Translations under genes and position numbers: made by a program | In this document: positions 43,171-44,715 of the stretch, one piece after another | Layout: the number at the start of each line of letters is the position of its first letter | Position numbering within the stretch: position 1 is the first letter of the stretch | Notes under the pieces: generated by a model | The model's database searches: none | What the model saw: only the letters and a program-made list of their open reading frames with translations | What the model was told of the DNA's origin: nothing | Origin: Escherichia coli | Lineage (GTDB): Bacteria > Pseudomonadota > Gammaproteobacteria > Enterobacterales > Enterobacteriaceae | Length of the DNA stretch: 64,000 bases | Strand: one strand, 5' to 3' | NCBI RefSeq assembly: GCF_024700885.2 | Contig: NZ_CP117016.1

Positions 43171-43473
43171 TTATCGCCAATGTGCAGGAATAATTAGGTC
43201 AAACGATTTTGCTGCATATTCAAGCATTTTTATTATTTCCCTGTGTCGTTCCTGGTCGAACGGCTGTCCATTTTTTCTACACTCTATAATCCCTTGTAAC
43301 TCTTTTAGGTTAAACATATCAAGAAGATAAAAGTTTTTCCATGTTGGTTGCCCGAAGAGGTTATAGACTGTTTCTGTAGCATCTCTCTCACTTGCTAATC
43401 TTTTCTCTCCGTCTATTTTTTCAAAAAATATTTCAGCTGTTTCTTTATCATCATAAGTATTTAACAATTCCAT
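43171..43473 (-). CDS. Hypothetical protein (100 aa), convergent with the three-gene operon
   Basis: AT-rich ORF; no family recognised. Confidence 0.35.
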   Translation of the reverse strand: MELLNTYDDKETAEIFFEKIDGEKRLASERDATETVYNLFGQPTWKNFYLLDMFNLKELQGIIECRKNGQPFDQERHREIIKMLEYAAKSFDLIIPAHWR

Positions 43474-43785
43474 TATGATTTTCCTGATTAATGAATTGAT
43501 ATCACGATAATTATATCATGAATAGATGTAAATTTACTATGTATATAAATTAGTGTACAATTCAACATGCCAATTGTTTTTTAATTTGTAATTTCGATTG
43601 GTTAATAATTGGATTCTCTTATAATGAATATATATTTACTCTGACTAGAATATTTGTAAACGTATTTTATATTGAGATTTTAAAATTGATTTGTGGCTAT
43701 GTACTCATAAATACTACTTTCGGTGTCAGAAAATACTTTATCTATTACATTTAAAATCCTAGGTGAAAGATATATAATGGCTACC

Positions 43786-44715
43786 TCACCCCCTAAAAAC
43801 CTCTTTTCGATGCCACTCCACAAACCCCTCAAAAGGGTAATTTTTACGCACCTGTGGCAACGCAATAGTTTTCCCGTCAAAATCCCAGAATAATCTCTCA
43901 ACGATCCCTCCGCCGTTTACCGCATCCGAGACCAGTACCCGCATATTTTCATCCAGGCCAATCGATCCTTTATCAAAGGCTTTATGGTGTATTGCGCAAA
44001 GCGCCAGACCATTGGGGATTTCACAAGGGCCGCCGTGCTGTTTCCATTTTATATGCGCCGCTTCCAGCGCGACGGTGGTGTCGTCGTGGCGCATATTAAA
44101 GCCACATATCGCGCACTGGTAGTTATAAGCGCGTAATACATTTTTGCGAAATAACGGGTCGCGCTGTTTACGGATTTGCTGGAGATCAAAACCCAGCTCG
44201 TCAGCAATTTCTTCCTGAATACTCTCGGTGAAGTGCGCTTCGAGTATCTGTTGCGCCAGAGTATTGATGAGTTTTTTATTGCCGGTTACCAGGGCGTAGT
44301 GCTGTTCATCGAAACCGCCTGCAACGTGGTATTCGTTCAGTTCCTTCACTGGCGGTTGTCGGCTGCTCCCTGCTGTTGAGCAAAGCTCGGCATTGTGTAA
44401 TTGCCAGAATCCGTCGCCTTGTAATCGCCAAAACGGCATATCAGGTCGGTACTGTGAACGCTGTGGCCCAAAACGTTCCAGTAAACTGTGCAGAGGTTCG
44501 TAGATTTCCGATCCATAATCGAAAAGGCGTGGATGTCCATTCAGGTATCCCGCTAATACGTATAGCAATAACAATGGTTTATGCGGTGCGCGCTGTTCAC
44601 CCTTATGCCAGATTTTTATATTGGCAATTGCCTGCTGTAGCGATTTACTGGAAGCCATTGATATCCCTGGCAGTGAAATAATTGCGATCATGCTCGCAAA
44701 TTTTCTGCTGTTCAA
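43786..44715 (-). CDS. HNH endonuclease with about 200-aa N-terminal domain of unknown type; start codon uncertain
   Basis: C-terminal HNH motif YNYQCAICGF...LEAAHIKW...LALCAIHHKAFDKG. Confidence 0.7.
   Translation of the reverse strand: MNSRKFASMIAIISLPGISMASSKSLQQAIANIKIWHKGEQRAPHKPLLLLYVLAGYLNGHPRLFDYGSEIYEPLHSLLERFGPQRSQYRPDMPFWRLQGDGFWQLHNAELCSTAGSSRQPPVKELNEYHVAGGFDEQHYALVTGNKKLINTLAQQILEAHFTESIQEEIADELGFDLQQIRKQRDPLFRKNVLRAYNYQCAICGFNMRHDDTTVALEAAHIKWKQHGGPCEIPNGLALCAIHHKAFDKGSIGLDENMRVLVSDAVNGGGIVERLFWDFDGKTIALPQVRKNYPFEGFVEWHRKEVFRG

Follow-up and report, generated by a model that had tools for sequence, protein, structure and literature searches.

What are two minus-strand open reading frames doing between a three-gene operon and nanS in Escherichia coli: does the HNH protein that one of them encodes belong to the operon as a fourth component or is it an independent enzyme, and where does its smaller companion fit? 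In the window, by which we mean the whole stretch of 64,000 nucleotides that was analysed, both are flanked by the plus-strand operon (33707-43124) on one side and by nanS on the other and are convergent with the operon, a 100-aa ORF at 43171-43473 and a 309-aa ORF at 43786-44715, just as an earlier note on this DNA had described them. Both are genuine and neither is a chance ORF, since the HNH protein has 6626 homologue clusters (50% identity, E<=1e-3) and the 100-aa ORF has 115 homologues. Taken jointly, it is very probable that the HNH gene is a solitary EcoWI-type enzyme standing outside the operon, with the 100-aa ORF being most likely a generic accessory. The features of the locus are as follows.

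33707-36598, plus strand: DrmD-like SNF2 helicase, operon gene 1 (PADLOC DrmD, 1.3e-199)
36619-39741, plus strand: Type III-like methyltransferase, operon gene 2 (PADLOC MTase_III PDLC03646, full length)
39744-43124, plus strand: Res-like ATPase, operon gene 3 (PADLOC REase_III PDLC03654, full length; Pfam ResIII and DEAD)
43137..43167, no strand assigned: perfect hairpin with a 14-bp stem, CTGTTCCATATCTC-TGT-GAGATATGGAACAG, as read from the sequence
43171..43473, minus strand: conserved acidic 100-aa protein (pI 5.0), convergent with the last operon gene
43474..43785, no strand assigned: AT-rich spacer between both ORFs, containing the right-hand edge of the variable island
43485-43482, minus strand: putative Shine-Dalgarno sequence AGGA of the small ORF, in the spacer, as read from the sequence
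43518-43510, minus strand: putative extended -10 (TGATATAAT) of the small ORF, in the spacer, as read from the sequence
43786..44658, minus strand: predicted SBD-HNH phosphorothioate-dependent restriction endonuclease gene, 290 aa, EcoWI-type
43786-44715, minus strand: maximal ORF of the SBD-HNH gene, 309 aa from TTG at 44715
43951..44115, minus strand: HNH nuclease core (aa 182-236 of the 290-aa protein), with C182-x2-C185, H202, N216, C221 and H224/H225
44233..44649, minus strand: SBD, the DNA sulfur-binding domain at the N-terminus (about aa 4-142); its pocket residues are H26, K27, M74 and P75
44758..44862, plus strand: remnant of a second HNH gene (C-terminal 28-35 aa or so), divergent from the SBD-HNH gene
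44870-45850, minus strand: nanS, on the other flank of both ORFs

The hairpin falls within the 46-bp gap separating the Res stop from the stop of the small ORF and is a candidate bidirectional terminator. Preceded by its own putative promoter in a spacer whose GC content is 0.34, as against 0.51 within the HNH gene, the small ORF reads as a stand-alone gene that accompanies the operon. Its family is compact: nearly all of the 115 homologues are exactly 100 aa long and 11 residues are invariant, and the AF2 model of the protein reaches a pLDDT of 96.6. There was no match to the protein in NCBIfam, PADLOC or PHROG, no precomputed Pfam domain on any homologue, no convincing fold match in PDB or AFDB beyond its own family, and no HTH or WYL domain was detected. 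The family was also considered as a phage anti-restriction gene, and this candidate was rejected because 50,697 phage records held no match and IMG/VR just two loci.

The company kept by the small ORF is more telling. It is contiguous with the 3' end of the Res gene in 187 E. coli genomes, and the same trio with the same convergent layout of the 100-aa ORF recurs in Arsukibacterium and about 11 more species. The family co-occurs with the SNF2-methyltransferase-Res system but is not exclusive to it, as it also adjoins BREX type 1, BREX type 3-like, DUF1156/DUF499 and type II R-M systems, with BREX BrxL/PglZ/PglX, BrxA and MTase_III among the neighbours identified. On the 3' side, 58/67 species-level loci have a methyltransferase homologue within 9 kb, but on the 5' side only 5/54 do; the nearest 3' gene is convergent with the small ORF in 58/67, and the median gap is 31 bp. 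The 100-aa ORF is thus the operon-linked gene and not an HNH-linked one. Because many other methyltransferase-containing defence systems of Gammaproteobacteria have it alongside, its likeliest role is that of a generic accessory, for instance a regulator or safety factor, to methylation-based defence modules in general, and not that of a system-specific subunit, although any function that it may have is one that we infer.

Small accessory genes at the edge of methylation-based defence operons have precedents in the C proteins of R-M systems and the BrxR regulators of BREX. The analogy to the 100-aa ORF is functional only, as there is neither sequence nor fold similarity, and the arrangement differs in that the 100-aa ORF is convergent, not upstream, and one family serves unrelated systems. 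More tentatively, and short of an even chance, the 100-aa ORF may found a structurally novel family, a portable accessory of unrelated methylation-based systems that sits convergent at their 3' end in at least 58 species, for which a regulator, an establishment or 'safety' factor and a restriction modulator are candidate roles.

Proximity to methyltransferase systems could instead reflect hitch-hiking on mobile-element cargo, in which case the small ORF would belong to integrative elements as a passenger or backbone gene, happen to border their cargo slot and have no defence role of its own. This alternative is rather unlikely, yet it fares best of those we weighed: the small ORF is often found near integrase, AlpA, RadC or CbeA backbone genes, recurrent clusters flank it on the left in 10-13 species, and it also occurs on plasmids beside IS elements. 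Against it stand the directional bias described above and the tight packing of the ORF against its neighbour. Moreover, in E. coli the cargo and the small ORF are inverted as a block relative to the same RadC/CbeA backbone in Aeromonas, no integrase or recognised backbone gene is called within 10 kb in Arsukibacterium, and the family's absence from phages also speaks against this reading.

In Salmonella and Klebsiella aerogenes, too, the small ORF has an SBD-HNH orthologue as its neighbour, which we provisionally attribute to a common insertion hotspot. A functional pairing of the two genes was judged unlikely, because the spacer DNA in Salmonella and K. aerogenes shares no homology with that of E. 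coli, the relative orientation of the genes differs between the two Salmonella loci, the non-enterobacterial loci with Pfam-annotated gene calls show no called SBD or HNH Pfam gene up to 10 kb from the small ORF, and the small ORF is missing from most E. coli genomes in which the HNH gene is intact.

We turn to the HNH gene itself. Its length of 309 aa holds for the maximal ORF from the TTG, but translation most likely begins at the ATG at 44658, which is codon 20 of that frame and gives 290 aa: an AGGGA lies 7-8 nt 5' of this ATG, the RefSeq record of 100% identity (WP_000168560.1) is annotated with the 290-aa start, and the Enterobacteriaceae homologues are 289-291 aa long. The product matches NCBIfam NF045808, "phosphorothioated DNA-binding restriction endonuclease", with 438.2 bits against a cutoff of 180, over profile positions 2-284 of 284, and its AF2 model has a pLDDT of 95.5. 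The motif CAICGF...AAHIKW...CAIHHKAFDKG, which the earlier note had picked out, is present in the translation and agrees with a Pfam HNH_2 match (residues 201-255 of the 309-aa form, E=1.3e-9). The HNH columns C182, C185, H202, N216, C221 and H224/H225 are invariant or nearly so among 81 diverse family representatives, and fold matches of the C-terminal part are the HNH domains of TagI, VcaM4I and EcoKMcrA.

The N-terminal domain, hitherto labelled unassigned, is by sequence and predicted fold a DNA sulfur-binding domain of the ScoMcrA type. A phmmer search aligned it to the ScoMcrA SBD (PDB 5ZMO) at E=5e-8, and Pfam PF26340 (DNA-SBD_ScoMcrA) is precomputed on homologues of the protein. The best 12 Foldseek matches all come from SBD structures of ScoMcrA or SprMcrA, for which the target-normalised TM-scores are 0.71-0.78, and the Hga SBD matches too. 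Residues H26, K27 and P75 align with H116, R117 and P165 of ScoMcrA; K27 and P75 are invariant and H26 is at least 90% conserved among the same 81 representatives. In most homologues a lysine takes the place of ScoMcrA R117, and the Y164M change gives stronger binding (PMC6224610). Score, SBD, sulfur pocket and HNH motif together place the protein in the EcoWI-like class of NF045808, in keeping with the earlier proposal of a modification-dependent, Type IV-like restriction enzyme, at least as far as its domains predict.

How would such an enzyme act? The SBD would dock on Rp-phosphorothioate (PT) links of incoming DNA through a hydrophobic pocket in which, going by the residue roles in PMC6224610, P75 would form the floor and H26 and M74 the walls, with K27 making a salt bridge. 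By analogy with EcoWI, the targets would be GpsAAC/GpsTTC sites written by the Dnd systems of other bacteria. The HNH domain, as a dimer with Mg2+, would then cleave the two strands a few bases from there (N7/N6 in EcoWI), whereby PT-modified plasmids or phage DNA would be destroyed and the unmodified host genome spared.

The biochemistry of EcoWI and its in vivo restriction of dnd+ plasmids have been described (PMC7461809; Lutz et al. 2020). We class the gene as EcoWI-type because its product is identical at 286/290 positions (98.6%) to that of the same-locus gene of E. coli W; it also shares with EcoWI the two-domain SBD-HNH architecture, a mass of about 33 kDa, the species and the family NF045808. 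The HNH gene is thus an ordinary, already known and already named type of E. coli restriction enzyme. From the identity to the W orthologue, this allele would be expected to cleave in a PT-dependent manner and to restrict dnd+ DNA, and, with the published EcoWI biochemistry added, probably has the EcoWI specificity. Four substitutions (this allele to W allele: G156R, H208Q, F276Y and G278V) set it apart, so specificity or activity could differ. The accession or strain of EcoWI is not given in PMC7461809 (main text and supplement), PMC9521924, PMC10602919 or PMC12707154, and a literature search for a link to E. coli W returned nothing; because no published accession or strain was found, we infer that EcoWI is the E. 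coli W gene from the nomenclature and the matching size (33.31 kDa for the E. coli W protein, 33.4 kDa reported for EcoWI).

ScoMcrA of Streptomyces coelicolor (PDB 5ZMM/5ZMO) is a more distant relative, with a homologous SBD (target-normalised TM-score 0.78) and a C-terminal HNH domain as well, but it is 561 aa long and has two further domains, a head domain at the N-terminus and an SRA domain, both missing from our 290-aa protein, and its alignment covers the SBD part alone. The HNH protein therefore falls outside the ScoMcrA-type SBD-SRA-HNH class. The base-contact loop reads SRGRR in ScoMcrA as against GSSRQ here, a change that is consistent with a differing sequence context (GpsGCC versus GpsAAC/GpsTTC). 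The SprMcrA and Hga SBDs (PDB 7CC9/7CCD/7CCJ and 8H0L) share the fold at about 18-20% identity, and SprMcrA, like our protein, is an SBD-HNH protein without an SRA domain; SprMcrA depends on Mn2+ and its cutting distance varies, while for EcoWI the metal is Mg2+ and the distance is fixed (PMC7461809).

Could the gene nevertheless be a relic that looks intact but is silent or inactive in this strain? Decay is certainly common at the locus: remnants of the HNH gene occur in 4859 genomes, about two thirds of E. coli genomes have fragments only, and the gene is a pseudogene in K-12 and in E. coli 042. Decay in the majority of E. coli genomes implies that selection for the locus is weak. Its former divergent partner has shrunk to the 105-nt remnant at 44758-44862, which RefSeq lists as a pseudogene, 'HNH endonuclease, missing N-terminus', and which is identical at 23/28 positions (tblastn) to the C-terminus of a 211-aa ScoMcrA_N+HNH protein whose gene is divergent from the SBD-HNH orthologue in K. 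aerogenes. In addition, the promoter and terminator scan, whose counts were close to those for shuffled sequence and hence uninformative, gave no strong promoter for the HNH gene. We nonetheless consider a relic improbable, because the ORF is full-length with every catalytic and pocket residue, the identical protein is widespread (its 90% cluster has 2617 members), and the closely matching W allele is taken to encode active EcoWI.

A reader of modified bases is far less probable still. The suggestion that the N-terminal domain is SRA-, PUA- or EVE-like, which would make the protein a Type IV enzyme of the 5mC/5hmC sort, draws on the reader-then-HNH architecture of TagI, VcaM4I and EcoKMcrA, whose HNH domains match the model. 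The HMM and fold searches led us to reject it: no SRA, PUA or EVE domain was found in Pfam, NCBIfam or PADLOC, all N-terminal fold matches are sulfur-binding domains, and the sulfur-pocket residues are conserved, so that the protein lies outside the SRA/PUA/EVE-HNH class and its N-terminal domain would read the phosphorothioate backbone.

We also examined how the HNH gene and the operon are inherited. At least 80% of the HNH gene is found beside nanS in 1706/5426 complete E. coli genomes (about 31%), with many different neighbours, and the Res gene is found in just 165. The HNH gene is intact in 51/183 genomes with the operon and 1655/5243 without it (odds ratio 0.84, p=0.33), hence there is no enrichment. 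Intact copies adjoin unrelated cargo, SIR2 in ET761 and McrBC, type I R-M and others in W, and in E. coli 042 an intact operon and small ORF adjoin a truncated HNH pseudogene. When the window, ET761, W and 042 are compared, similarity stops some 3-9 nt past the HNH stop codon, near 43781, and in most genomes the Megablast breakpoints fall at query position 682-684, or about 43781-43783 of the window. A leuX tRNA-derived att repeat was searched for at this junction and not found, and the window holds no tRNA gene. The HNH gene is an old chromosomal resident beside nanS that borders a highly variable island, and the island junction runs between it and the small ORF, which is on the island side.

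The least tenable reading is the one that gives the SNF2-methyltransferase-Res system the HNH protein as its fourth subunit or as an effector, for although the two are adjacent in the window and in about 51 E. coli genomes, and the operon in E. coli is, whenever present, always at this locus, this reading is countered by the lack of enrichment, the 042 arrangement, the junction separating the HNH gene from the small ORF, the Arsukibacterium trio with no called SBD-HNH gene within 10 kb, and the characterisation of the SBD-HNH family as a stand-alone enzyme (PMC7461809). The HNH gene is not a component of that system; of the two options that the earlier note had left side by side, the independent defence gene has held and the fourth component has fallen. 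It is the 100-aa ORF, given only a brief mention there, that is truly linked to the operon, though not exclusively so.

For the HNH gene, this outcome removes a candidate for a new Type IV enzyme or a fourth component and replaces it with an EcoWI-type, predictably PT-dependent identity, and the variable defence island beside nanS has this gene as its fixed edge. The small ORF is the more useful lead, for it is conserved and lies, closely packed and with a consistent direction, at the end of many methyltransferase-based defence systems that are unrelated to one another. Should it modulate these systems, it would be a control or accessory element common to BREX, R-M-like and DUF1156/DUF499 systems and, if so, would serve as a practical marker for finding new methylation-based systems.

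Two minus-strand ORFs lie between the operon and nanS, as the earlier note described, and only the start codon of the HNH ORF had to be corrected. The window is E. coli chromosome and, throughout the stretch queried, 100% identical to strain XJ6.1 (NZ_CP074356.1). The features are laid out as follows:

33707-43124, plus strand: three-gene operon (SNF2 helicase, Type III-like methyltransferase, Res-like ATPase)
43137-43167: AT-rich hairpin with a perfect 14-bp stem and a 3-nt loop, filling most of the space that separates the Res stop from the stop of the convergent small ORF
43171-43473, minus strand: small ORF of 100 aa
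43786-44715, minus strand: HNH ORF in its maximal form (at most 309 aa, TTG start)
44870-45850: nanS

Judged from the sequence, the HNH gene likely starts at the ATG at 44658 and encodes 290 aa (33.16 kDa), since RefSeq uses the same start (WP_000168560.1), homologues are 289-291 aa long and AGGGA lies upstream. The translation contains the HNH motif quoted previously and matches Pfam HNH_2 (E=1.3e-9).

The protein is already known, and its RefSeq name is already correct: it matches NCBIfam NF045808, "phosphorothioated DNA-binding restriction endonuclease", end to end (438 bits; the curated cutoff is 180). Its N-terminal domain, previously left unassigned, is a DNA sulfur-binding domain (SBD) of the ScoMcrA type by both sequence and predicted fold. 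By sequence, the first 140 residues match the SBDs of ScoMcrA (5ZMO, E=5e-8) and, with a weaker score, SprMcrA. When an AlphaFold2 model built on 81 diverse homologues (pLDDT 95.5) was searched against the PDB, the best 12 matches were all SBD structures of ScoMcrA or SprMcrA (target-normalised TM-scores 0.71-0.78); the Hga SBD was also among the matches, and the HNH half matched TagI, VcaM4I and EcoKMcrA. No SRA, PUA or EVE reader was seen in the sequence and fold searches. The sulfur pocket of ScoMcrA consists of H116, R117, Y164, P165 and A168; R117 is Lys in most homologues, and Y164 is variable, with Y164M binding better (PMC6224610). In a HMMER alignment these positions correspond to H26, K27, M74, P75 and R78 of the 290-aa protein. 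Among 81 representatives K27 and P75 show no variation, conservation of H26 reaches at least 90%, and the HNH residues C182, C185, H202, N216 and H224/H225 are conserved to the same degree. The base-contact loop aligns as GSSRQ against SRGRR in ScoMcrA, which would fit a sequence context other than ScoMcrA's. The family comprises 6626 clusters at 50% identity (E<=1e-3), with near homologues in E. coli, Shigella, Citrobacter, Klebsiella, Enterobacter and Salmonella.

The proposal of a Type IV-like enzyme named the correct kind of protein, but its domain is one already known, and the suggested link to the operon was wrong. Among 5426 complete E. coli genomes, 1706 carry at least 80% of the HNH gene and 4859 carry fragments of it; the Res-like gene occurs in only 165. 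In K-12 a remnant survives as a pseudogene, flanked by yjhR and ythB and close to the nan genes. Intact copies have other neighbours: in ET761 a small island with an integrase and a SIR2 gene, downstream of tRNA-Leu, and in E. coli W McrBC, a type I R-M system and other cargo. Conversely, in E. coli 042 the HNH gene is a truncated pseudogene, yet the neighbouring operon and small ORF are intact. Strain-to-strain similarity ends 3-9 nt past the HNH stop codon, in agreement with megablast breakpoints, and GC content steps from 0.51 to 0.34 there. An intact adjacent HNH gene accompanies the small-ORF region in 51 of 183 genomes (27.9%), as against 31.6% of the remainder (odds ratio 0.84, p=0.33), so that there is no enrichment. 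The HNH gene is therefore not a fourth component of the operon but a fixed flank of a variable island, and not cargo of the island beside it.

Within the operon, the methyltransferase (gene at 36619-39741) is mosaic. At its two ends, over ~390 N-terminal and ~160 C-terminal residues, it shares ~99% identity with the 042 allele, whereas similarity is weak in the centre (~37786-39259), where the catalytic and target-recognition region lies; GC content dips to 0.28-0.36 over this part, and together these features suggest a swapped specificity module. The gene is one continuous ORF in the window, while the identical XJ6.1 gene is labelled 'frameshifted' in RefSeq. Elsewhere (~49182-50787), fimD lacks its N-terminus and is abutted by an IS1 element. 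Other strains have fimB, fimE, fimA, fimI and fimC here; this one lacks them, which leaves its type 1 fimbrial operon truncated.

The small ORF is the only part of the case with some novelty. It is convergent with the operon and would be transcribed independently, since it has an extended -10 element (TGATATAAT, 43518-43510) and a Shine-Dalgarno sequence of its own. The hairpin, contained in the 46-bp gap after the Res stop, is probably a bidirectional terminator; a terminator scan missed its AT-rich stem. No match was found in NCBIfam, PADLOC or PHROGs, no homologue has a precomputed Pfam domain, and the small ORF is absent from phage genomes. Its 115 homologues, nearly all 100 aa long and 50-70% identical, share the motifs GEKRLASERD, YNLFGQPTWGNFY and IPxHW. 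Within E. coli it invariably adjoins the operon, being contiguous with the Res 3' end in 187 genomes; further genomes carry remnants truncated by IS66. Twelve contexts outside E. coli, inspected one by one, all have a methyltransferase or R-M remnant beside it, the exception being an E. coli plasmid in which it lies between IS elements. Among them, Arsukibacterium has the identical SNF2-methyltransferase-Res trio in the same convergent layout. One metagenome-assembled 5.7-kb contig assigned to 'uncultured Streptococcus sp.' (L031, USKA01000072.1) encodes a protein 100% identical to that of the window, beside Res- and methyltransferase-like ORFs, and almost certainly reflects contamination of the bin by E. 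coli.

A scan of one genome per species yielded 77 small-ORF loci, whose neighbouring ORFs were called, clustered and labelled via Pfam and PADLOC; we counted the 67 in which the small ORF is full length and its 3' flank extends for 4 kb or more. In 58/67 loci a methyltransferase homologue lies within 9 kb 3' of the small ORF, against 5/54 on the 5' side, and the first 3' neighbour is convergent in 58/67 (median gap 31 bp).

Systems neighbouring the small ORF
Window-type SNF2-methyltransferase-Res trio: about 12 species
Variant trio: weak REase_III matches, MTase_III, SNF2 helicase
BREX type 1 (BrxL-PglZ-PglX): 6 species
BREX type 3-like (BrxA-PglZ-SNF2-PglX): 11 species
DUF499/DUF1156: 9 species, some with nested PsyrTA or Septu
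Small type II methyltransferases

Several Pseudomonas and marine species have complete small defence systems, either the PsyrTA toxin-antitoxin pair (L057, L059, L061) or Septu PtuA/PtuB (L037, L051, L054), inside or abutting DUF499-DUF1156 operons ending at the small ORF. Cargo and small ORF form a block that in E. coli is inverted with respect to the RadC/CbeA backbone seen in Aeromonas, so the small ORF is tied to the cargo and not the backbone. Our conclusion is that the small ORF is probably a promiscuous accessory to defence modules based on methylation. What is seen is association. A role in regulation or safety is our leading, tentative guess, and its chief competitor is passive hitch-hiking.

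In Salmonella and K. aerogenes, SBD-HNH orthologues (74-80% identical; L020 8485-9351, L021 8267-9133, L016 17761-18695) lie 0.6-7.5 kb from a small-ORF homologue. A functional link between the two is formally conceivable, but their orientation varies and the spacer is not homologous to that of E. coli; we read the proximity as a hotspot for insertions, shared by these species, next to the SBD-HNH gene. In the window, 105 nt of a second HNH gene survive (44758-44862, plus strand), divergent from the SBD-HNH gene; in E. coli only its last ~28-35 codons remain (23/28 identical). K. aerogenes retains an intact 211-aa divergent partner with ScoMcrA_N and HNH domains (L016 18814-19449), so that at the ancestral locus in enterobacteria the domains of ScoMcrA were apparently divided between two divergent genes.

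EcoWI, a characterised E. coli SBD-HNH enzyme, is a Mg2+-dependent 33.4 kDa dimer that cleaves GpsAAC/GpsTTC at N7/N6 and in vivo abolishes transformation by dnd+ plasmids; its homologues are similarly spread over enterobacteria (PMC7461809). Its accession was not found in published papers on the enzyme. At the same locus, next to the nan genes, E. coli W carries a 290-aa gene (WP_000168572.1, 33.31 kDa), which is probably EcoWI, judging by restriction-enzyme nomenclature, species, architecture and size; the window protein is its orthologue (286/290 identical). For the window protein the analysis shows the domains, the pocket, the catalytic residues and the orthology, and from these we infer phosphorothioate dependence, the GpsAAC/GpsTTC preference and the cut distance. 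Genes of the dnd type rarely adjoin enzymes of this class (<3.6% of cases). Very probably, the SBD would capture an Rp-phosphorothioate on incoming DNA and the dimeric HNH domains would then cleave close by, while unmodified host DNA would escape.
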